DNA of 64,000 nucleotides from Curvularia clavata (taxonomy: Eukaryota). This document shows positions 38,860-54,307 of the stretch, one piece after another. A model generated the notes under the pieces. It saw only the letters and a list, made by a program, of their open reading frames with translations. It had not been told where the DNA came from and did no database searches. The stretch covers positions 3,720,001-3,784,000 of the forward strand of contig CP089276.1 in NCBI GenBank assembly GCA_023920165.1. Reading direction: 5' to 3'. Every line of letters starts with the position of its first letter. Position 1 is the first letter of the stretch. Made by a program: the position numbers and the translations under genes.

Positions 38860-41800
38860 TCACAAGTTGACAACCCGGGTGTCATCGTTGAGAAATTGGC
38901 GGCGGTATCGCGCTATCTCCTCGGCAATGCCGTTTGGATCTTTGATGTTTCGCTGGCGAAGCTCTTTGAGTACGCCACGGAGACCGTCATTCCACCTCTG
39001 CTTTTCTTCAGACGTCTTGCCTGGGTTTGCTGTTCCCAGCTGGAGAAGTAGCTTGTCACCTGTACAAAAATCTAGTCAGTCTGCGTACAATGGAGGGGAG
39101 AAGCAATGACCAATGCCAGAAAATCCTTTGTTCAACAACGCACCAGTGATAATCGCGTCCCTGAAATGCTGTGCAGGGCATTCAGGGTAAGTGCAAGTGC
39201 CACCTTCTACCTCGGTTTGGCAGAATGGTGTATCAGGGTCTATCTGGTGGCTAAATGTCGTGGACAGGAAACCTCCAGGCACATCTTGCAGATAATTTGG
39301 ATGATAGCGATATGACTTGAACATTCGAAGCGGACTTTCGTACGGCTTGAATTGGGGCGGTTCATCATCAACTTTCTCCTCAGGTGTGGGCTCCTACTCT
39401 GTGTTAGCCAAGTTTCCGAAGGGGTGATACTACATACAGGTTCCACAACGTCCACTACCGATATTGTCCTCGGTTGCAATTCGGGTGCTAGATCATCAGC
39501 AATGTTAGTGACCGGACGGACAGGATTGATCCTAGAAGCAGTATTGTCCGCTTCAGAGCCAGAATCAGATTCTTCGTCCGAATCTGAATCCGAGTCGTCT
39601 GAGCTGTCGTCTGACGATGAAGCAATGTCCATGGCGCCATCCTCTGCTTCAGTTTGGCCTGCTTGTGGAAGAGTGTCCAATGGAGGGGCCTCGGCTTGCA
39701 CATCAATCATTTCCTGATCAGCGTCGGGTGGTTCGTAAGCCTCCTCATCCTCTGCAGAGCTATGCGATGCAGATGCAGGTGGAACACTCATCTGGGTGTT
39801 CTGGGCTTCCGCTGTTGAAGCATCCCTCACAACCGTGTGCTCCTCTGGGTCATATTCTGGCTCATATTCTTCCTCATCCTCGCCATCCTCACCTTCGGAA
39901 ACGGACATCTCGACCTCTCCTTCTTCTGACGGGGAAGGTACGGTGACTGGTTCAGTCGTCGCTGAAGCATCAAGCTGGACGACGTCACCGTTTTTAGCTG
40001 GGGGCGGAGCATCGTAGAAATCCTCACCCATATCTCCATCAGACACAGCGGCTGAACTCTGCGACCTAGACACTCTAGCGTCATTGTCTTCGGCTGTATG
40101 GATGGTGCCATTCGCATTGGATGTCATTTCCGGTTTCGAGGGCAGGCTGACCTGGTTCGTGCTAGGCGGAGTCTGGTGCTGAGCTTGCGAGGTACTCTGT
40201 CCAAGGCCCGGAAGCGTGGCGTATCCTTGAGGAGGCTGGCTTGGGAGTGGTGGTCGATTGGGAAGGCCAGTCTTTGGGTTGCCCGTGATGCCTGCACCTG
40301 AATTCTGATAGGATGGTCGCACAGGGAGGGGGTTTTTGTTTGCAGAGGATTGAGGGGCACTGTCCACACTTTGGGACTGGGCATTGGGTTGCGGAGACTG
40401 CTCACGCTCAATCTCATCTTTCTTGGCACGAAGTTCGGCATGAGACATGCCCTCTGTGTCGACACCAAGACTCTCCAATTCCTTTGTCAGCTGCTCCTTA
40501 TCTCTTGCAATCCTTTCGTTAAGTGCGGTCAATTGCTCCAATTCCTTTGCCAACTCCGCCATCCTGCTTGTATTGCTTGCTATTTCTGCATCCAAAGTGG
40601 GCAGTTTAGACTGAATTTCAGCGCGGCGAGATTGTGCAGTGTTTTTGGCGGTGGTTGTAGAAGGCTTAGTCGGGGTATGGTTTTGAGGCGGCAGTGCTGC
40701 TGTGGAAGCCTTCTGGGCCATGGGTGAAGAAGCAGCTGCAGCGGAAGCTATTCTATCTCTTTCACGCTTTTCAGCAAACTTTTTCTTGAGTGTCTCTCGC
40801 ATGACAGCCAGTTGTTTCTCTTTGTCGGCCAACTCTTTCTCCCGCGCAAGGGTGCTAGGTGTCTGTGGCCCAGGCGTACTACCAGCTGTGGTAGCAGACA
40901 GTACAGAGCCAGCGTGAGAGGCAAAGTTGGGCAGATTTCCAGGAGTCTGACGGGGTGTCTGAGTAATGGTGGGGGCCGGTGGATCGTCGTCAATGTCCAT
41001 GTCGCTACCATTGGATTCATCCTCGCTGACTTGCATTATCATGGAATCGTCTTCTGTCCGAGCATGAGAAGATCGGTCCAAGGGCGTAGTTGGTCCCTGC
41101 GAAGCTGGCACGTCTTTTCGTAAGGCATGTGTCTTCTGAGATACAGATGGCGAAGGTTGAGATACAGTAGGAGTGGCGGTGTTGGAGACCGGAGTAGAGT
41201 TCATAAAAAGACCAGGGATTCCAGTAAAAGATGGTGCGAAGCTTTGGTTTGTAGGAGTGGCCGAACCACCTGCAGCTGGTTCCGTGACCTGGGGCTGGTC
41301 TACTCTTTGGGAGGGACCAGATGACTGCCTGGCACCATTGCTGGCCCCGGCCGGCGCTTTTTGCCTCGCCTTGATTGCCTCTAACCGCTGCTTGATCAGT
41401 TCGGTATTCCTAGCCCTCTGCTCGTCTGTCACGGGTGGCTTGGCAGTGGGTGTGGTTGCAGGCTGAGGAGTCTGGGGCTTAGCGGGCATCGTTTGCTGTG
41501 CAGGGCTCACTGGTTTGGATGTTCCAGCCTGTTTCGCTGCCTTTGCGGCTTGTAGGCGGGCAATGTAATCCTTGCGATCACCTGGCGCAGTTGGTGATGC
41601 GATGGCCTTGGCTGAGGATGCGGGAATGGCACCTGTTTTGAGCGTGGGCATCGTACTGGGTTGTGGGGCAGCTGCTGGCTGAACGGCTGGCGCGCTCGAT
41701 GGCTTGGGCGGCAGAATGGGAGCGGGCTCAGAGGGCAGGTTCATGCTTTGATACAAGCCTCTGAGCAACTCGGGATCAAGCTTCTCATCCGCCAATGTAC

Positions 41801-42569
41801 GGTATGGGATGTTGTTGCTGTGCAGAAGTTTGATGAATTGTTTCGCTGACTCGCGGTCCTGCTGTAGTTTCTCTACAAACGTCGGCTGGTTTTCCTGGGG
41901 CTGCCTTGTGGTCTCGTTGCTTGAGCCGTTGTGCTGGACAGCAGGAGCAGGAGCAGGAGCAGGAGGGGGTCTGCCGTTCACCTTGGCTGGCGGAGGTGGT
42001 TGAGATACGTCAGTCTCGCTTACCTCACCGTCCTCGCGGTCGCTGTCCATAATTTTCTGTATGCGCTGGTGGGCAGGAATGGGCGCAGGCGCAGGCGCGG
42101 ATGCGGTTTGTTGAGGTTGAGGTGGAGCAGGTGGATGTGTAGGTCGCTGGGCAAAGGGCGGCGGGAAGTGTGTGGGCAAGGCGAGGTTCTGCGGAGTCTG
42201 GGGAAGCGACGGGGGAGGGAAGCCCATGGGAGCAAACGGCGGCGGGGGCAGGTTGGGTGGAGGGAATGCGCCATTCTGGAAGAGGGCCCACAGATTGGCG
42301 TCGGGAGGCAGTTGGGGTGGCCAGGAAGCTGGGCATTGTGTAAGTATAGCGGAATCTAAGATATTTTGGCCAGGAGGAGGCGACTCACGCGCTGGGGGTG
42401 GGGGCTGCTGGCCGTTCTGTGTATACGCATTGAAGTTGATGCCGGGCAGTTGTTGCAGCAGAGGAGCGCCGCGCTGTTCTTCTGGCGGCGCGCCTTGGGG
42501 CGGATGGAACTGGGGCGGAGGAAAGCCATTGGGAAAGCCGTAGAACGGCTGCGAGTAGTTGTTGGCCAT
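38860..42569 (-). CDS. Large Pro-rich protein with C-terminal zf-C3H1 domain, Red1-like (MTREC/NURS RNA surveillance); introns about 42329-42388, 39394-39437 and 39060-39142
   Basis: DREDGEV and EEGEV motifs, low-complexity middle, then YESPLRMFKSYRYHP...HQIDPD.PFC..E..GG.C..P.C..QHF (zf-C3H1) and a C-terminal helical domain. Confidence 0.75.
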
Positions 42570-43052
42570 GACCGAGTGCAGCAGCGACGGACTGGAGCTC
42601 TACGCGTCTTGTAGCACGCAAGTTCTAGCGTCAACGCATGGATCCGAGGCGGCGGCGGCGAGGATGGTGATGACGGCGAAGGTAGGTGAGAGCAGAGATG
42701 GGTTGCGCAGATGGGCGGGACGGGTGAAAGGGATTCGTTCGGCGTCGCAGCGATGGAGCCTTTGCGCAGGCAGTGTCGTTAAAGCCAAGAAGTGAATGTC
42801 AATTTCGCGACGGGCTGGGGCGCTGCGGAGAGCACGTGACCATGCGGCCGCACGCGCAGCGCGAGTCAGCAAGGCGGGTGGTGTGGCTGAGTGTGGCTGA
42901 ATGTGGCTTCTAGTGTGGCACGTTGCTAGGGGCAGGCTGCTGTGGTTGTTTACGACGGGCGGTAGCGCATGCACCCGCCAATCTGCACATTCGCTCTCCA
43001 CCAACTTCCCCAGAGGCAGGCCGTGCGTTGTTGTGCTTCCGTCCCACACTCC

Positions 43053-43194: not shown

Positions 43195-46100
43195 ATGAGC
43201 GCGCCGGCGCCCAATGGCCGCCCTTTCGCGCGCAACTCGCGCAACAGCCCGTTTGCCAGGAACGCCTCCATATCTGCTCCTGGCCAGAACCCTTCAAACC
43301 GTCCGCACTCCGCCCTCATCTCCTCGCCGCTGGCCGAAGCGGAACCCGCCATGGGACACTTACGCCACCGCTCCCTCACCAACCTCAGCTCCCCCACCCT
43401 CGGCCGTAGCGACACAGCACGCTCACGTTCCAACTCGCATCGTAACAGCACACATGGCGGCACCTTTGCACCCCAGTTCATCTCCGAAGATGACAACGAG
43501 GCTCCCCGTTTAGGTGGAATCGTAGAGGGTGAGAACGACTTCTCCGGCAAACGCTATGTCTGGCTCAGAGATCCGGTCACGGCTTTCGTCCGAGGCTGGG
43601 TCGTAGAAGATCTCCCCGAGGGAAAGATACTGGTGCAATGTGACAATGGTACCCAGCAAGAGGTCGATGCCGATGCGATTGATAAGGTCAATCCGGCCAA
43701 GTTTGACAAAATCGACGACATGGCCGAACTCACACATCTCAACGAGCCCTCAGTTATCCACAACCTACACATGCGTTACCAGGCCGACCTGATATACGTA
43801 CGTTCTGCTTGCCTCGTGACTGTAGTATTGTGCTAACATCTTGTAGACGTACTCCGGCCTGTTCCTGGTCACAGTGAACCCATATTGCCCACTGCCCATA
43901 TACTCAAGAGAGTACATCAACATGTATCGAGGACGGAGCAGAGAGGAGACCAAACCGCATATTTTTGCAATGGCTGACCACGCCTTTCGAAACCTCATTG
44001 AGGAGGGCACAAACCAGAGCATTCTCGTAACGTGAGTGAACACGCAACTTGTAAGAATACTGGCTAATCATTTGCAGGGGAGAGTCTGGTGCGGGCAAGA
44101 CAGAGAATACCAAGAAGGTCATCCAGTACCTGGCTGCAGTTGCCAATTCGGACACCCCGCACGTCAAGTCAGGAGGACGTCAGCTTTCCAACTTGTCTGA
44201 ACAGATCCTACGTGCCAACCCAATCCTCGAAGCATTCGGAAACGCGCAAACGGTGCGGAATAACAATTCGTCCCGTTTTGGAAAGTTTATCAGAATCGAG
44301 TTTTCACGGACCGGCCAGATCACTGGCGCATACATTGATTGGTACCTCTTGGAAAAGTCGAGAGTAGTGCGGCTCAACTCCAACGAGCGCAACTACCATG
44401 TCTTCTATCAACTGCTGCGCGGCGCGGACAGCAACATGAAACAGGAGTTCTACCTGGGCAACAAGGATACCGAGGATTTTGAATACACCAAGCGTGGAAA
44501 CGACGTCATTTCTGGTGTCTCAGATCCCGAGGAATGGAATGGCTTGATTGAGGCCTTCCATGTCATGGGCTTCAGTGACAAGGAGCAATTTGCCATTCTG
44601 AAGACCGTTGCCGCAGTCCTCCACCTAGGAAACATTCGTGCGATAAAGGAGAGCCGACGAGCAGACCAAGCAACCTTGGACCTTGCAGCTGAACAGCACG
44701 CTCAGATTGTTGCGCAATTGCTCGGCATCTCTGTGGAGGATTTCATCAAAGCGCTTCTGCATCCTCGAGTAAAAGCTGGTAGAGAATGGGTCGAGAAGGT
44801 CCAGACGCCGGAGCAGGTCAACCTCGCCATTGACGCACTCGCCAAAGGTATATACGAGCGTGGCTTCGGCGATCTCGTTGACCGCATCAATCGGCAGCTG
44901 GACCAGACTGGTGCTGGTGCAGACGACTCGCACTTTATTGGTGTACTCGATATTGCTGGTTTCGAAATCTTTGACGAGAACAGCTTCGAACAGTTGTGCA
45001 TCAACTACACAAACGAGAAACTGCAGCAGTTTTTCAATCACCACATGTTCGTCTTAGAACAAGAAGAGTACGCCCGGGAGCAGATAGAGTGGAAGTTCAT
45101 CGACTTTGGGCGTGACCTCCAGCCCACAATCGACCTCATCGAACTGTCAAACCCCATTGGAATCTTCTCCTGTCTAGACGAAGACTGCGTCATGCCCAAG
45201 GCCACTGACAAGAGCTTCACAGATAAGCTGCATTCCCTGTGGGACCGCAAGAGTACGAAATATAAACGGTCACTTCTGACCCAAGGCTTTGTTCTCACAC
45301 ACTACGCTGCTGAGGTAGAGTACTCGACTGAGAATTGGCTGGAAAAGAACAAGGACCCACTCAATGACAATGTCACTCGACTCTTAGCAGCTTCTTCGGA
45401 CAAGCAGGTTGCGAATCTCTTCGCAGATTGTGCTGATCCGGACGATGACCTCGGCGGAACCCGCAGTCGTGTCAAGAAAGGCCTCTTCCGAACAGTGGCC
45501 CAGCGCCACAAAGAGCAGCTATCAACACTGATGACCCAGCTTCACTCAACGCATCCCCACTTCGTTCGTTGCATTTTGCCAAACCACAAGAAGCGACCGA
45601 AGCAGTTTAGCGCGCCCCTCGTCCTGGATCAACTGCGTTGTAACGGTGTCTTGGAAGGAATCCGTATTGCACGTACAGGTTTCCCTAATCGATTGCCTTT
45701 TGTGGAATTCCGCCAAAGATACGAGGTGCTGTGCAAAGACCTTCCCAAGGGCTACGTTGAGGGTCAAGTAGCGGCAAGTATGATCCTTGACAAACTCAAC
45801 CTCGACCGTTCATTGTATCGCGTGGGTCTCACCAAAGTCTTCTTCCGAGCCGGCGTGCTTGCCGAGCTGGAGGACCAGCGAGATGCACTCATCCGCGATA
45901 TCATGATCCGCTTCCAATCTGCTGCTCGTGGTTTCGTTCAACGCCGCCAAGCTCACAAGCGCCTCTATCGTGCTGAAGCTACACGCATCATTCAGCGAAA
46001 TTTCCAGGTCTACCTTGACATGCAGGCCAATCCGTGGTGGAGGCTCTTCGCTCGTATGCGACCTATGCTTGGAGCAACCAGGCAGGCAGCTGAAGTCAAA

Positions 46101-49100
46101 AAGCGTGACGAGATGATTCAGCAGCTGGAAGCGAAGATGCAACAAGAGGCTGCAGAGAAGCAGCGGGTGGAAGATGAGCGAAGGCGTGCGGAATTGGATA
46201 TACAACGCATCCAGAAAACCTTGGAAAGTGAACGCGCTCTAGCACTCGACAAGGAGGAGATCTTCAAGCGCCTCCAATTGCGTGAGGCTGAGCTCGCTGA
46301 GAAGCTGGCTGGCGCAATCGAAGACCATGATCAGCTCGAGGACCAATTGGATGCTCTCATGGATGCTAAGAAGAGAACCGAAGAGGAGGCTGAGCACTTG
46401 CGCGCAGAGCTCGAACAAGCCGGACAAATTATCAGCCGACTTGAGAGCGAAGCACGAGAGCTGGAGGAGCAGAGCGCTCGGTTGGAAGAACAGATCAGAG
46501 AGCTTGAAGCCATCAGGTCGCAACGGACTGAAGCAGAGGAATCTTTAAGTCAGGAGGTGAAGATGCTCAAGAGCCACCTTTCTTTGAAGGAGCGAAAGCT
46601 TCAAGACCTTGAAGCAAAACTCCTGAAAACGGATCAGGACCTCGACATCAAGCTGGCAGCTTCACAGAGAGAAGTACAGGCAGGCAAAAAGCAGATCAAG
46701 GAGCTGCTCGATGAGAACCGACAAATTCGCCAGCAGATTGCAGACCTGTCCTCGACATCTACGAGCTATGAGGACCTCATCAGGCGCAAGGAAAGCGAAC
46801 TGGCGATCCTGAAGACTGACCTCAAGAACTACGAAAACGACCGCCGCTTGTTCGACGATGAGAAGCGGACACTGGCTTCCAAGCACGACAGCCTTCAGAG
46901 CCGACTCCGTGACGCAAATGCGGAGCTAGACGCTGTGCGCTCGCAGAAACAACAATTGGAGCGAGAGGCTGCCGACGCAAAGCGTCTTCTCGAGGAGAAG
47001 ATTTCCGAGGATGCTGAGTACAGCGAGAGCCGGAAGCTACTCGAGGAACAGATCGAGAGCCTCAAGGGCGAGCTCTTCACAGTACAAAAGGAGCTCAGTC
47101 GAGAGAGGCAGTCCCGCGATGACGTTGAGATGCTTGGTGAGCACAAATACGATACGCTCAAGCGTGACTATGATGCGCTGAACGAATCGAAAATCACCAT
47201 CGAGAAAGAGATGTATGCTCAGCAAGACGTCCTGCGACGAGCGACTGAATCGCGTGCGGCTCATGAAAGAGAGCGAAAAGAGTACCAGACGGAACTGCAT
47301 ACTCTGCGTGAAAAGTATTTGAAGCTTGAAGAGGAGAAACTCGACGCCGATGCTGAGGCGGAGCGCATCCAAGCCAAGCTAGCTCTGGAACGACAGGCTG
47401 CCCAGCAACACGAAATCGAGGCCAAGGACCAGCAGCTCGACCAACTGGAGGCGGAGCGCAACGACCTAGCTGAGCAGGTTCATAACTTGACTCAAATGCT
47501 GGCCGACTCTGACTCATTCAAAGAGCGCAACGATCAACAAAAAGAGCGCCTCGAACGCGAAATCGTCACAATCAAGGGACGGCTTACGGCATCGGAGAAT
47601 GACAACCGCGCACTTCTTAACAAGCTTCAACAGAAGAACTTGGACATTGCTCGTACCAACTCGAGGGCTGGAGATACGCAGCGTCTAAAGATCACCCAAC
47701 TTACACATGAGAAGTCCAAGGTTGAGGAGGATAACAAACGCCTCATGCGCCAACTCGAGGATGCCCAGGTTCACATTGCATCTTTGGAGAAGCAAAAGGA
47801 GAAACTCTCTCTGGATCTTGAGGATTTGAACCACGAGGTTGCAAGAGAACACAAGGCCAGCCGCAATGCAGAGAAGGCTTCATCAACAATCAATCTCCAG
47901 CTCGCCGAGGTGAACCGTAAGTTGGAGACAGAACGACAGCTTCGTACGCAAGCCCAAGCCAACACGCGTGCTGTTCAAACATCCCTCGATAACACGAACC
48001 TCGAGTTGGAAGAATGCCACAAACAGCTCATGCTTCTTCGTAAGGTCTTTGACCCAGAAGCAGCTGATGTCTCCATTACCTACGAAGCCGCGAAGCCAGA
48101 GATCGCCAAGACAGTCGATATTGCCGAGCGCCTTGAGTCTGTCAATCAAGCTCTGCGTGTGGCAGTAGAGCGGTACTCACGTGCTGAGGCTCAACTCGAA
48201 GAAGTCCGGGAGAGACATGAGGGTGAACTCAACGAATTGGATGCCCGCCATGCCAACTCGAAGCGTGCACTACTGGAAGAAATGAATAGCAACCAGGTCA
48301 ACCAAGCCAATGCTCGTCAAACACCAACGCATCACCGAAAAGACAGCGAGAACCGCCGGCCATTCTCAATCACAAACACACCTACCAACCAGCGACACAT
48401 GAGCAATGCAACCAACGACTCCGCGCGTTCAGACCGAACTGTCGACACTGTCACTATCAACAATCGCATGGACATGGCTGCCGAGCTTGAACAAGTACAG
48501 AACCAGTTGCAGATGTCGGAGATGCAGAACAAACATCTTCGATCCCAGCTCGAATCCTCACGAAACCGAACCGATTGGCAAGAGGAAAGCCCGTCCATCC
48601 GACGTGTTCAGAAACTGGAGCGTGAGAACTATCGCCTGCATGACATGCTTGATGATTCCGCAACCAAGGTGTCCGCGCTTGAGCACAGCCTTCGCTCTGG
48701 CCAACTCTCTTACCAGGAGGTCCAAACAAAGTCTCATGAGCAGTTGTTTGATCTTTTGAACTCACAGGAGCAGTCGCGCAAATCTATCGTACAGGCACAC
48801 AACAACGCCATCAACGAGCTTGCCGATGCGAAGACTGCTTTTGACGACATCAAGCAAACCAAGACAGCCTTGGAGTCAGAGCTTCGCGAGCTCCACCAAG
48901 AACTGGAGGAGATCACCAATGAGCGCGAGCAAGAGCACGCCAACCACAATCAGCTCCTCCAAGAGTTCGCTGACCTCCAAATCCGGTTGGACAACGAGAC
49001 CTCAACCCTTGTTGATGTGCAGTCAAGCCTGAACATGTACAAGAGCAGGGCTGATGAGTACTTCAACAAGCTTGAGCAAGCAGAACTTGCTGTTTTGAGA

Positions 49101-50629
49101 GCATCTCGTGCCGAGCAGTTCGCAAGGACTCAGGCGCGAGAAGCTGAGGAGACGTGTGCAACGATTATGGCTGAACGCAAGGAGATGGATGGTATGGTTG
49201 AGGACCTGCAACGACAGGTTCAACGATACGAGGAGCGTGTCGAAGATCTCTCCACGGACCTGGAGACCGCTCTGCAGGCCAAGAAGCGACTTCAAAACGA
49301 GCTTGAAGACTACAGGAGTCAGCACGCTCATGATGTCGAGGACAGCGAAACTTCGCTCGAGCAGACGAGGAAGAAGTACCAGAGCGAGCTCCAAGCGCTG
49401 ACTCAGGAGATTGACCAGGAGCGCGAGAACGTTATTCAAGTACGCGAAGAGAACGGACGTCTCCGCGAAGAAATCGAAGAACTGAGGAACAAGTGGGACG
49501 ACGAGGTTCTGAACTCGTCTACTTGGGCCAAGGAGAAGAGCCGGCTTGAGATGACTCTGCAGACTATTTCTGACTCGCGCGACGAGGCTGCCAACGCACA
49601 CAACGAGGCTCAATCCAAGATTGTCAGTCTGCTGTCACAGGTCCGTACACTACGCACCAATGTCGATGACCTCGCCGCAGAGCGTGATTCTGCTATCGAA
49701 GAGAAGAAGCGTCTTGAGGCCCGTCTTCAGGAGGCTGCAGATGCATTGGACGACCTTTCTCGTTCCGAGTCTCCGGCTACACGCAACGCCGCTGCTTACG
49801 ATCGCGACTTGCTGGAACTCAAATCTGGCCTTGCTCAGCAAGAAGACATTACTGCCGCTGCCGTCGGAAAGATGCGTCGTGCAGAGGCACTTGCGCAAGA
49901 ACTGCAGAAAGACATTGTCGCAGAGCGAGAAGCAAATGTCAAGCTCCACAAAGACAAGGCTGCGGTTGAGAAGAGCCTTAAGGACCTTCAACTCCGCATT
50001 GTGGATCTCGAGACAAAGGGTTACAGTGGGTCAGCCGGCAAGGATGTGCGCTTCCTACACGGGCGCATCCAAGAGGTATGTTCTCTTATTCGTTTGATGC
50101 ATTTACTTGTCCTAACATATATTTTTAGCTTGAAAAGGCTCTCGAAGACAGCGAGGCCACTCGTCTATCCGAATCTCGCAGTGTCCGCAATGTCGACCGA
50201 ACTGTCAAGGACCTGCAAACGCAGATCGAGCGTCGTGACAAGCAAAACGCCTCTGTCATGGAAGACCTCAACAAGTCTCGCGACAAGATCTCGAGCCTTC
50301 TTGCTACCATTGATGAGCTGCAGTCTTCCGACTCTACAAATCAACTCGCCGCTAAGCGTGCCGAGCGCGAACTCCGCGAAGAACGTGAGAAGAATCTGCG
50401 TCTTGAGCGTGAACTCGAAGGCTGGAAAAACCTGCGCGTCGAGCGCCGCAGCACCCTGGGTATTCCCGCAGCCCCCGGTAGCGATGCTGGTGACAGCCGT
50501 TCCAGGAGAGGAAGTTCCATTGGCCTGTTGATGGGCGAGATGGGCGAGATGCCCGCAAACGACAAGGGCAAATATGGTAGTCTTCGATCAAACCTACGTC
50601 GCGTCAGCGGTCAGAAGGGTTTTTTGTAG
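43195..50629 (+). CDS. MYO2: Myosin type II heavy chain (cytokinesis/septation); introns 43798-43846, 44032-44077 and 50076-50128
   Basis: SH3-like N-domain, GESGAGKTENTKK P-loop, NNNSSRFGKF, DIAGFE, QLRCNGVLEGIRI, an IQ region, a very long coiled-coil tail and the C-terminus KGFL. Confidence 0.95.
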
Positions 50630-50698
50630 TTGATGGGATCTCTGAGGGGCGGGGAGTATGGAGGTCCCGGTATCCTTTATTGAAGCTAAGTCCGCCAG

Positions 50699-50976
50699 CC
50701 GAAGCAGAAGAGGACTTAGCAACGAGAGCAGTTGTTAATGACGGTAACGGCAATATTGTCGAGGAGGTGGAATTGGACTCGGATGAATACGCTAGCTTGG
50801 CGGACGCGGTTGGAAATCATGCTGCTCAGGATGGTGCCGACCGCGCTGACAAGATGGATTTTGAAATCACGGATGACGAGGGGAGTCAGCCTGGCGATGA
50901 TGGTGACAGTGCCGTCGGTGGTATCAAGCGGAAAAGGACTATCCGTGTTGTCATTCGGTCCAGGGCATTTTTGTAA
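50699..50976 (+). CDS. Candidate alternative terminal exon of myosin II (acidic about 92-aa tail ending RSRAFL)
   Basis: GCTAAG branch plus CCAG acceptor at 50698, in phase with the GTCAGA donor at 50610 in the last myosin exon. The frame is open and protein-like with no ATG start of its own (the ORF-track start is TTG). Confidence 0.5.
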
Positions 50977-52000
50977 CTTTTGATTCGGATGGGCGGGGCA
51001 GGAGAGCTTTGTTGGCTTGCTTTTACAGCATGCTCTACTTGTATTTTCCTGGCACCTTGCCATGCCGAGCATGGCGTTTTCAGTTTGGTTGGTGATATCC
51101 AGGGAACTTTGGGGGTCTCGGATGGATCTTATACCCTCGATGGGCTCTTTGTTCATGATTTATGTTTACTGTTATGCTTAATTAATTACTTACTGCTACT
51201 ATTTAATACCACCAGCAGGATCTGTTTAATAAGGCGTTCAAAATAGCACTTTTATGAGCATTGTTATGCGGTCTTGATTTAATCCCTCACTTGCGCTGCA
51301 CCAGTGTATGTGTATGGTGTTTGGTGCAAAACTGTATTCAAGCAAAATCAAAATTTATGCCCAAGTTCTAGAACTAATTTCACTGAAAGGTAGAAAAAAT
51401 GTATATGAATGACCTTAGTATCTTTTGAGCTAACTAGTGATGCAGATAAATGTATTTGATAGAGCAATGAGATGGGTCTTTTTACAATACTTCACGTCGA
51501 GTGGAATTAAAGACTAAAATGATGTTGATGTATTCTATATAATGCAGTATGAATACAAGACGTTTTGTGTGAGATACCCCGCTTTGCCGTGTTGATGTTG
51601 AACGTGTTGGCTCAATGCCTGCTAGGTATACCGAATAATGTTAGACGTAATGCCTACCGCTTTGCCTTTGATGTTTGACGCGTTCCAATCGCCCATTTTG
51701 GAGAACTAGGAAATGCTCTTGGGTGGAGTATAGTTGAAAGTCGCCTAGCTGGGGTCGCAGTTACCAACAAGGCGAGGGACAGACTTGATGCCACAACGCT
51801 GAGTGAGGTCGCAAGACTCCTAGTCCTTGGACAGACAAACTGAAAATCTTATATATTCTCTGACTACAGATAGACTCTAACACAATAATAATAATACAGC
51901 TGCATTAGCTGTCCCTCATGTTGCCCAACTTGTAGAACATCGTCGAAGTCCTACGTACATTAAGCTTTCAGGAGGGATCCTATCATTTTCAAGTACAACA

Positions 52001-54307
52001 CTAGGTATACAATTGACCTGGAGAAGGCTGAATAACCTCTTCACTTGAGAGACCACAATGTGGTGGCAAATTGTCAAATTTCGGATCATCCTGCACCAGA
52101 ATCTCACCCCACTGGAGTTCCTTCTCCCAGGGTGTATCCTCTACTCGTATTGTGTGACACGATGCAGCGATGGCCGCGCTGCAGGATCCTACTACGGGAG
52201 CGGGGCTGAGTTTCTTCATGCCCAGCACAACCATACCGATTGCCAGACCGATAGCGACAAGCACTGATAGCAGGATACCCAGAGGACAGTACGCCAGCGT
52301 GATAAAGTCAGCACCGCATGTTATAAGGGCAGGGTTATCGTTATTCTGAAACCAATTGCTTCCTAGCGCCTCTTCCCAGTGTACACACTGATGGCTGTTA
52401 TGCTGACCGTACATATTGTACACCTGTACAGAAACAACAAAGAGGCTTTGCGATGACAGCCAATGAAGGAGCGTTGAGAAAGCCAGAAGCGGTAGGGCAT
52501 AGCGGTATGGAAGCTGTAGGAAATATGTGCTGCGTTGGCGCCCTTGACGGCTCGATGAAACGCGTAGCGGCTTGCGCCGTGTGAAGAAGCTTGACCACTC
52601 GTATGAAAGCAGCATTGAGGTGATTGTAGCATTGTAGGAAAAGTAGATGAGAGAGATGATGACCTGAGGGGTATTGGCGATGATGACGTTTTCGAATACG
52701 CCAGCGAGGCCAGAGGACGCGGTGTAATTTCTCACAATAGTTCTTGCGTCAACACTACCTAGGCCGATTCTAAGGACACTGGCTAGGTCCTTTGTGCCGT
52801 TGATAGCGTTGTAGCCATAGACAAAGAGGTAAATTAAGACAGATATGCCAGATGCTAGACTGGGGTTGCAGTTAGTGAAATTATTTAGTTCGTCAAGGCT
52901 GTCAATTATACTGACGCAAGAAAAACAGTCAATAGCTTCCCCCTCTTGACTGATGCAAACCATCTGAGTGATTTTCCAGTAAACGCTCGTGGCTCCTGGC
53001 GCAAAGGCCACTCTTTGCCTGCGCGATGGACTTGCTGTTGTGACAGGAGACACATTTTGTCCGCCGTTGTATCAGGGTCGCGTAAGAAAGATGCTATAGC
53101 ATCTCCGACGGTAAGCATTGGGTCGTTGCGAAGCGTCCGGATGCTGCCTAAGATTGCCAGGATCTTCACTATGTTGAAAATAATGACTATGGTGATCAGA
53201 TGAACACTAAATTTAAGCGTGCATTTCTGGTGAGTGGGCTCACTCAGGCAACTTCGCACTGGGATGGAATTGAGCGGGGCCCATATCGAAGAGTTGGCCC
53301 GCAGTTGAGGCAAAAGTAGATGTGTATTCTGCTCAAGACATTCTGCAGAGTTTGTGTCGAATTGCTCGTAAATCCAAGCTGTCCCAGTATATGCGGAGCA
53401 ACGGCCGCTTGCTACAACCTGATTGTACCAGCCATGAATCTCGTTTTCTGGCATGAGACCTTCGTCAACCAAGAGAAATACATTGCCCCTTGATGGTTGG
53501 AAGGGGATGCTGTATTCGTTTATGCAATCCAGAGGTGAGAGCACCTCGAGTCGATCTGCTTTGAAAGCCTCTGCGTACACCATGCTCCCAAGATGGCGCT
53601 CACCATAAGTAGTCGATGATGATGATATGTTGGGTGGGTTGTTGAATCGGCCAGCTTCTATCGCGGCTTTTGCCTCGGGGCCAAATTTGTAGATTCCATA
53701 TGTCTGAGCTGAGGTGGTTTTGAAGATAACGGAGTTGTAACTATGAAAGTGTCAGCGTGTGCTGGTGGTCTTGGCAAATTCCTTCGACTCATACTGCATA
53801 CCAGAGATGTAATGGGAATGAAGATAACCCCAGAATCCACCAGTATATCTTTTTGTGCTTTCCAAGGTCCGAAGACAAAACGTTTCTCAGACTAGGTATG
53901 CCAATATCGAGCCATTTTCCTCTACGATGGGCGTTATCTATTTCGGAACGAAGAGGGGCTGAAAGACATTGCATGCAGTAATTGCTTGCAGCTAGGATTG
54001 AAGAGCTTAAAATATTGATCAGTAGATGGACACCAATATTTGCCCATTTGGTGTCATCGCAAGACGCTTCGTAGAGTATACCGAGTCCGTCTTCAATCCC
54101 TTTCATCCTCACTGCCCACAATAAAAAGGTGGTATTCACGATGAGTACCACACATCCTAGCAGGGCGAACATGTATAGACTCTTCTGCCATTTCTGTCTT
54201 TTCCTGGCAGTGTGTGTGACATCAGGCGCCAAGAAAGGCTGGTGTTGCACATCTCGTCGCTTCAAAAGATGTGCTTGATCCATATCCGCACCATGAGTGA
54301 CTCCCAT
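52001..54307 (-). CDS. DUF6536-type multi-pass membrane protein; introns about 53741-53801 and 52860-52913
   Basis: HLLINILSS.IL.ASNYCMQCLSAP.R.EID.AH..GKWLDIGIPSLRN, WILGLSS.PLHL.YNS, TVGDAIASFL, ANTPQ, KPLRVS, RSTYFLQLPYRY and GSCSAAIAASCH. Confidence 0.85.

Follow-up and report, generated by a model that had tools for sequence, protein, structure and literature searches.

A conserved slippery run and an overlapping reading frame point to candidate −1 ribosomal frameshifting at the end of the myosin II gene of Pleosporales

Introduction

The stated consensus for sites of −1 ribosomal frameshifting is a slippery heptamer, X_XXY_YYZ, accompanied by a structure located 5–9 nucleotides (nt) downstream (PMC3777964). 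In Podospora anserina, a −1 frameshift near the end of the open reading frame (ORF) of PaYIP3, a Rab-GDI complex dissociation factor, is described as giving rise to a C-terminal extension that is specific to Pezizomycotina (PMC3777964; PMC5009743), the evidence consisting of fusions to green fluorescent protein (GFP) and of a 1% reporter signal in yeast (PMC3777964). The cellular −1 frameshift genes listed beside PaYIP3 are dnaX of bacteria and edr/PEG10 and Ma3 of mammals (PMC3777964). Here we analyse the 3′ end of the gene for the class II myosin heavy chain in a 64,000-nt stretch of the Curvularia clavata genome (contig CP089276.1 of assembly GCA_023920165.1, positions 3,720,001 to 3,784,000 of the forward strand), hereafter referred to as the window. 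Directly before the myosin stop codon lies an invariant slippery run, and the stop codon is overlapped by a conserved ORF in the −1 frame. The comparisons reported below make this site a strong candidate, on computational grounds, for a new site of −1 frameshifting in a cellular gene.

The myosin II site has much in common with PaYIP3 as the latter is described. Both reside in cellular genes of filamentous ascomycetes of the same subphylum, neither gene being derived from a transposon. In both cases the shift occurs, or would occur, on a run of U a few codons before the zero-frame stop and leads into a longer and less conserved C-terminal ORF; both have a downstream structure with compensatory changes, and in both a short and a long protein would be made from one mRNA. 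The two cases differ in that PaYIP3 is a membrane-traffic factor whereas myosin II is a motor protein, and in that U_UUU_UCC of PaYIP3 is called non-canonical by its authors whereas the myosin site fits X_XXY_YYZ. The spacer is 2 nt in PaYIP3 versus 7–11 nt in myosin II, where the structure is a simple hairpin. Furthermore, the YIP3 case is described across Pezizomycotina, whereas the myosin site has so far been found in Pleosporales only, and the former was demonstrated experimentally while the latter is a candidate from sequence comparison. The myosin II site is nearer to the textbook signal than PaYIP3.

With dnaX, edr/PEG10 and Ma3, as these are described, the myosin II locus would share a heptamer followed by a downstream structure, and two products that are made in a fixed ratio and have the same N-terminal part. 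The similarity does not extend to the origin of the gene. The mammalian cases derive from retroelements, unlike myosin II, which is an ancient housekeeping motor. A further parallel comes from animals, where alternative non-helical tailpieces of myosin II heavy chains are made by alternative splicing; the role of the tailpiece in myosin II assembly has reportedly been the subject of one study. In animals, as proposed here, two isoforms are alike except at the very C-terminus, beyond the coiled coil. However, splicing is responsible there and probably not here, and in the fungal protein about 116 residues would be added to a near-complete canonical tailpiece, which would not be replaced. The two cases are alike in outcome, not in mechanism. 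The literature searched, the scope of which did not include subscription journals, contained no account of frameshifting in a fungal myosin.

Results and Discussion

A coding region in the −1 frame behind the myosin II stop codon

The following features of the window define the gene and the reading frame behind it:

43195..50629, + strand: gene for the myosin II heavy chain, zero frame (N-terminus of P0005 by tblastn, Pfam, translations)
50627..50629, + strand: TAG, at which the short (canonical) form of myosin II stops in the zero frame (read from the sequence)
50620..50976, + strand: extension in the −1 frame, with codons starting at positions equal to 1 modulo 3 (0 stops in 11/11 sequences, substitution ratios, strain variants)
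50926..50973, + strand: best-conserved motif of the extension, KRKRTIRVVIRSRAFL (21-sequence alignment)

The gene encodes a class II myosin heavy chain, composed of a Myosin_N SH3-like domain, a motor and a coiled-coil tail. It starts with the ATG at 43195; the main exon ends at 50075 and the last exon spans 50129–50629, while small introns, the bounds of which are approximate, are located near 43830 and 44040. Pfam recognized Myosin_N (1.3e-12) and Myosin_head in 43195–43827, and translation of the main exon revealed the P-loop GESGAGKT and a coiled-coil rod of ~1200 residues. Relatives numbered 983 at E<=1e-10, the best named among them being Pleosporales class II myosins; the nearest bear the name class II myosin and contain PF02736, PF00063 and either PF24319 or PF01576. 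Over residues 1700–2005 the protein is 98% identical to P0004, whose 90% cluster holds an Exserohilum turcicum protein, and 95–96% identical to myosin II of Alternaria, Coniothyrium and Pyrenophora. The last exon closes with ...GSLRSNLRRVSGQKGFL, so that the canonical protein ends ...RRVSGQKGFL, followed by TAG.

The extension reads FFVVDGISEGRG...acidic region...GGIKRKRTIRVVIRSRAFL and is terminated by the TAA at 50974–50976. From stop to stop, the ORF occupies 50581–50976 (131 codons), and its earliest in-frame ATG is codon 92. The GC content is 0.51–0.55 as far as 50976 and drops to 0.36–0.43 beyond this position.

A phmmer search with the 131-codon ORF against 1.84 billion representative proteins (cut-off E<=1e-3) resulted in 23 matches. 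Two of these, P0138 and P0145, are long and match at several short places; they were left uninspected, outside the tail-like set. The remaining 21 are tail-like, and 19 of them are products of ORF callers of no more than 150 amino acids (aa). All 21 share the C-terminus G[IVL]KR[KR]RT[IV]R[VIL][VI]IRSRAF[LI]; in their alignment, K104, R105, T108, R110 and I113–F118 are invariant. This alignment was then used to scan metagenome contigs of the Joint Genome Institute (JGI), where 105 stretches matched and 20 loci were confirmed. The myosin junction is present in 17 of the 20 loci which, together with the window, represent 11 distinct sequences. According to a rough assignment (single high-scoring segment pairs in blastx against 22 named proteins), the myosin parts of the metagenome loci resemble those of Alternaria, Pyrenophora, Plenodomus, Didymellaceae and Massarineae.

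In all 11 distinct sequences the tail ORF uses the −1 frame and opens at least 8 codons before the myosin stop codon, which it overlaps. The tail frame is free of stops in all 11 over 88–188 codons, the other two forward frames containing 2–14. The ratio of nonsynonymous to synonymous substitutions (dN/dS; Nei-Gojobori) for the tail ranges from 0.143 to 0.652 in all 54 computable pairs, one of the 55 pairs being saturated. Strain variants, namely RNA contigs from the species complex of the window itself, point the same way: over 50631–50934 they differ from the window at 8 positions, 7 of which are synonymous in the tail frame and one of which changes Ala to Val. A conserved start codon of the tail was not found among these sequences, the residue preceding KL[SD]P being M, L, V or absent and M92 not being conserved. 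As judged by these comparisons, the extension is a genuine coding sequence under purifying selection, conserved behind myosin II across Pleosporales. It has so far been found in this order only and appears to be an order-level novelty.

The slippery run at which the frames join

50617..50626, + strand: slippery run G_GGU_UUU_UUG, the proposed −1 site (invariance, zero-frame phase)

The run contains two overlapping X_XXY_YYZ heptamers in the zero-frame phase, G_GGU_UUU (50617–50623) and U_UUU_UUG (50620–50626). The latter is found in 11/11 distinct sequences and the former in 10/11, their phase having been verified by zero-frame translation: the last zero-frame codons are AAG GGT TTT TTG TAG in ten sequences and AGG AAT TTT TTG TAG in the eleventh (L019). 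When all loci holding the junction are counted, GGGTTTTTTGTAG occurs in the window and in 16 of 17 loci, and TTTTTTGTAG in all 18. Positions at which synonymous changes could have accumulated are frozen, with GGT used in 10/10 cases, TTT in 11/11 and TTG in 11/11. The respective shares of these codons in the same exons are 33.5% of Gly, 44% of Phe and 10.8% of Leu, and other invariant residues a few codons upstream are encoded by 2–4 different codons.

The tail frame is interrupted by stops upstream of the heptamer, at distances from the GGG codon of 24 nt in L008, 30 nt in L019 and 36 nt in the window, L014 and L016. Because of these stops and of the openness of the tail frame downstream, the switch of frame has to take place between −24 and +13 of the heptamer. 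A slippery heptamer in the zero-frame phase is thus followed by a −1-frame ORF that is open from the site and, judging from dN/dS, is under purifying selection.

Several other ways of joining the frames within this interval were considered and rejected. The interval contains three AG dinucleotides, at −2, at +1 and in the TAG stop behind T6. The AG at −2 is missing in 3 of the 11 sequences (L001, L011 and L019), and that at +1 belongs to an AAG that lacks a pyrimidine tract and has a different phase in L019. A donor GTAG at the stop combined with a downstream acceptor, as in the Ascochyta gene model P0033, would skip a segment that is in frame and open in 11/11 sequences. Readthrough or editing of the UAG could not reach the tail either, the zero frame meeting a TGA 17 codons past the TAG (16 sense codons).

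A hairpin downstream of the slippery run

50634..50669, + strand: conserved hairpin with a G-rich loop, the proposed stimulator (minimum free energy and centroid folds, RNAalifold, 11 sequences)

The arms of the hairpin, 50634–50643 and 50660–50669, form 10 base pairs. The hairpin begins 7–8 nt after U_UUU_UUG and 10–11 nt after G_GGU_UUU. Over the 11 sequences 96.4% of the cells are paired and 3 of the 10 pairs are changed on both sides; the covariation score was reached in 6 of 500 shuffles; when the 3′ arm was slid by 1–3 columns, pairing fell to 36–63%. RNAalifold recovers the 50634–50669 helix independently, and the changes by which L014 preserves the stem are nonsynonymous. The structure seen at the site is a simple hairpin, with no pseudoknot found there, and a search of 50400–51300 against Rfam returned nothing at E<=1.

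A second hairpin is predicted within the extension:

50686..50719, + strand: second predicted hairpin (RNAalifold; arms 50686–50693 and 50712–50719)

Its pairs display swaps between GC and AU among the 11 sequences, one pair, for example, being GC in five sequences and AU in five.

The dominant myosin II mRNA

50076..50128, + strand: 53-nt intron, GTATGT..CTAAC..TAG (joint in 4/4 RNA runs)
51271..51282, + strand: ends of the long RNA contigs, candidate 3′ end of the mRNA (51282 in X1, 51271 in X2; two studies, 11 nt apart)

RNA contigs of four runs from four studies were aligned to 49000–52000. One of the runs is recorded as oligo-dT RNA-seq and the RNA origin of the other three is our guess; contigs of this kind drop rare variants. 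The 53-nt GT..AG intron, which served as a positive control, is skipped in the contigs of all four runs and, since it is skipped exactly in each of them, the four runs represent spliced RNA. All contigs crossing 50577–50700 (X1, 50127–51282; X2, 50127–51271; X9, 50355–50712; X10, 50542–51138) follow the genome colinearly and show neither joints nor indels, uncovered parts (e.g. X9 50717–50918) having been left out of the reading. Inserted or deleted letters in the T-run were found in the contigs of none of the four runs, which speaks for the dominant form only. The dominant myosin II mRNA is colinear across the junction. The ends of the two long contigs are a weak hint that the mRNA probably terminates at 51271–51282, and because these contigs extend so far, the whole extension appears to be contained in the dominant myosin mRNA.

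Public gene models and the protein P0131

Among the 120 relatives listed, 50 end with GFL and 4 with RSRAF[LI]. The latter reach the tail through predicted introns, the junctions of which (marked by a slash) are as follows:

P0010, Pyrenophora tritici-repentis: junction RRVS/EEEG
P0025, Lentithecium fluviatile: junction KVG/FFVVGG
P0033, Ascochyta rabiei: junction GFF/PYF
P0054, Paraphaeosphaeria minitans: junction LRS/GTSVRGG

Public models of this gene thus disagree, four of them carrying four different invented introns and most others stopping at ...KGFL. Such inconsistency would be expected at a recoding site, because gene callers cannot represent one and invent introns instead.

In one protein, P0131 (JGI; 256 aa, encoded by a 1903-nt contig), the coiled coil ...RSRRGSSIGLL is followed without a break by PEGFFVVDG... 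and the tail. This protein is without the canonical tailpiece, and its residues in the region of the hairpin differ from those of the other sequences. The contig is probably genomic, because the ORF starts at the first Met past the position of the 53-nt intron. By its sequence, P0131 probably represents a lineage in which a deletion has fused the two frames and made the long tail constitutive. If P0131 is genuine, myosin II can carry the tail constitutively.

The octamer TTGATGGG occurs twice in this part of the window, at 50528–50535, ~100 nt before the stop, where the zero frame reads LLMG, and at 50630–50637, immediately behind the stop, where the tail frame reads VDG. This repeat may be due to chance.

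Proposed mechanism

The explanation that we favour, as the probable one though well short of certain, is that programmed −1 ribosomal frameshifting joins myosin II to the extension. A single unspliced Pleosporales myosin II mRNA would then give rise to two heavy chains. Most ribosomes would terminate at the UAG (50627–50629) and release the canonical ...RRVSGQKGFL, whereas some would slip one base back on G_GGU_UUU_UUG (50617–50626), stimulated by the hairpin at 50634–50669 and possibly also by the adjacent stop codon. The slipped ribosomes would read the −1 frame for ~116 codons, as far as the TAA at 50974–50976. Their product would continue ...SGQKGFF(or L)VVDGISEGRG..., through the acidic stretch, to ...GGIKRKRTIRVVIRSRAFL, being 116 residues longer than the canonical chain. 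A tandem slip on G_GGU_UUU, a tandem slip on U_UUU_UUG and a P-site slip at the waiting UAG would all lead to the same frame and are indistinguishable here. The slip itself and its efficiency are what we infer.

Several points weigh against this explanation. Its support is entirely comparative, and the RNA data consist of contigs rather than raw reads, in which a minor spliced or extra-U form could be hidden. G_GGU_UUU is absent from L019; where present, its spacer of 10–11 nt exceeds the usual 5–9. The well-spaced heptamer ends in G, which is a poor last base in eukaryotes, and TTTTTTGTAG also resembles a good 3′ splice site. P0131 joins the frames 6 nt before the heptamer and not at it. As for the hairpin, the window sequence by itself folds no better than shuffled sequences (z = -0.04, 94 of 200 folding as well); the covariation is modest, the measure of further pair types being attained in 138 of 500 shuffles and 4 of the 10 pairs being invariant; and the stem lies within coding sequence, which is itself a cause of conservation.

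For the more inclusive proposition, we lean only slightly towards acceptance: that myosin II is decoded throughout Pleosporales (Alternaria-, Pyrenophora-, Plenodomus-, Didymella- and Lentithecium-like lineages) by a conserved canonical −1 frameshift 1–2 codons before the stop, giving a substoichiometric chain that has an acidic linker and ends, for a second time basic, with RSRAFL. As to function, our guess is that the substoichiometric long chain alters filament assembly or the anchoring of the contractile ring by means of a second basic ..[GA]FL end placed beyond an acidic spacer.

Alternative explanations

Rare splicing is the alternative that survives best, and we consider it unlikely. 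A minor mRNA would use the invariant TTTTTTGTAG as an acceptor (after 50629) together with a phase-1 donor, e.g. GTAGTC at 50577, or else the junction would vary from species to species. T6GTAG does resemble the acceptor of the real intron, ...TTTTTAG, and in the window the donor at 50577 and the acceptor at 50629 would delimit an in-frame intron, likewise of 53 nt. Rare isoforms are invisible in contigs; the only joint seen in the four runs, however, is that of the 53-nt intron at 50076–50128. That gene predictors reach the tail by introns in P0010, P0025, P0033 and P0054 might seem to favour splicing, but the four junctions are all different, as ab initio guesses would be. Nor are the signals for splicing conserved. 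There is no conserved phase-1 GT donor, the best being a GTCTYC-like sequence at −37, which is poor and present in 8 of 11 sequences, and a GT at −40, present in 5 of 11. The 58 nt preceding the TAG are devoid of a CTRAY branch motif in all 11 sequences, and the AG at −2 is absent from the three sequences named above. Acceptors past the stop are excluded because the segment that would be removed is in frame and open in all 11.

Transcriptional slippage, which is treated as a known alternative to ribosomal frameshifting (PMC5009743), would require RNA polymerase II to add one U in the U6 run of some transcripts; the hairpin would then be either unrelated or acting on the polymerase. One T added in 50620–50625 yields exactly the tail frame, and an invariant homopolymer suits slippage of the polymerase. 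We nevertheless hold this explanation to be improbable. Six bases are short for such slippage, the contigs of the four runs contain no indels (a statement that concerns the dominant form), and the conserved hairpin, located at the spacing of ribosomal frameshifting, would be left unexplained.

The extension could also be translated independently of myosin, from a transcript of its own, from a non-AUG start or by reinitiation, into a separate protein of ~90–115 aa. ORF callers do give a free-standing small protein of this kind, as seen in 19 of the 21 tail-like matches (<=150 aa), and most Pleosporineae sequences have an ATG, TTG or GTG codon just before KL[SD]P. This codon is, however, absent in L014, L016 and L019, no RNA contig begins at the ORF (the contigs continue from the myosin exon), and P0131 is a continuous ORF from myosin to tail. 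Independent translation would leave the constant −1 frame, the overlap with the stop and the openness from the heptamer in 11/11 sequences without explanation, and its probability appears to us very small.

The last alternative is that of a preliminary description of the window, which, from the letters of this stretch and their translations, had proposed two alternative C-termini of myosin II brought about by a regulated intron:

50610..50698, + strand: proposed 89-nt intron (geometry exact; unsupported as an intron)

Much of what was read from the sequence is borne out. GTCAGA at 50610 is in phase 1, after the first base of a GGT codon; GCTAAG occupies 50685–50690, CCAG ends at 50698, and the interval measures 89 nt. 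Its removal, by which the last six residues would be swapped for the acidic tail, joins G/CC in frame to AEAEEDLATR...IRSRAFL, ending at the TAA (50974–50976). The echo of KGFL in the end of the tail could be verified in the sequence, and the alignments show no conserved start codon. Two of the expectations placed on relatives are borne out as well: dN/dS of the tail is below 1 in all computable pairs, and wherever the junction is kept (17 of 20 metagenome loci) the ORF is situated directly behind myosin II.

The expected RNA junction, 50609/50699 or one from the donor 50577, is by contrast not seen in the contigs of any of the four runs, and the splice sites are not those of a conserved intron. 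The donor GT at 50610 is kept in 5 of 11 sequences, as is the GT at 50577; the acceptor AG at 50698 is present in the window alone among the 8 sequences alignable there (read by eye); and where the window has GCTAAG, relatives have GCTGAG or GCTGGA. Read in the tail frame, the inside of the supposed intron has no stop in any of the 11 sequences, many of which read FFVVDG.SEGRG.WRSR...KL[SD]PP. By hand count, the segment that begins at the GFF codons and reaches the L[SDN]P motif measures 25, 26, 27, 19 or 21 codons where alignable, and since the segments differ in length by whole codons, indels have occurred here only in threes. Unspliced in the contigs of all four RNA runs, without conserved sites and with a coding interior, the 89-nt intron is rejected as highly improbable, as is its variant with the donor at 50577. 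The marks of an alternatively spliced myosin II tailpiece, i.e. an RNA junction together with a conserved donor, branch point and acceptor, are not seen in these four runs and 11 sequences. What stands of the preliminary description is the outcome, in that a conserved ORF, apparently under purifying selection, lies directly behind myosin II; the splicing mechanism does not.

Significance

Outside genes derived from mobile elements, cellular genes have very few conserved sites of −1 frameshifting. If the frameshift is real, myosin II would be the first cytoskeletal motor known to be expressed in this way and only the second such cellular gene in fungi. It would imply a long, previously unrecognised isoform of fungal myosin II, altered at the very end of the rod at which assembly is controlled by tailpieces. 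Long chains amounting to a few percent could dominantly tune the assembly or anchoring of the contractile ring, given that heavy chains dimerise and assemble into filaments. An order-wide site with a canonical heptamer and a hairpin in an essential motor of cytokinesis would also provide a clean model of cellular recoding.

Features of the tail protein

The conserved elements of the tail are LKL[SD]PP.EEEE, LDLD.D...TLVG, E[IV][DE].[ED][IV]TD[DS]E and the invariant basic-hydrophobic end, of which IRVVIRSRAFL echoes the canonical LRRVSGQKGFL. Pfam assigned no family to the tail ORF, and a search of the ESM Atlas with the tail gave no usable match. AlphaFold2, run on the tail alignment, returned an uninformative fold (mean predicted local distance difference test score, pLDDT, 57.6; predicted template modelling score, pTM, 0.16), and the tail, including its acidic stretch, is probably disordered. 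The 91-aa tail peptide was not found in longer proteins of the searched set, which comprised proteins of up to 2000 aa and thus placed full myosins outside its range. A comparison of the P0010 tail with long proteins returned P0010 only, reflecting a limit of the word index rather than absence.

Neighbouring loci

On the antisense strand, the ORF 50716–51159 had a single weak match in Pfam, attributable to chance (E 0.23). Upstream of the myosin gene, the minus strand carries an open frame of 1119 codons (39240–42599) for which there was no Pfam match at E<=1e-3. On the other side lies a convergent neighbour, with a minus-strand ORF at 52001–53071 (356 aa) to which Pfam assigned no family. This neighbour is strongly expressed: a contig of run X2 that starts at 51875 and belongs to it has a depth of 217, versus 13.5.

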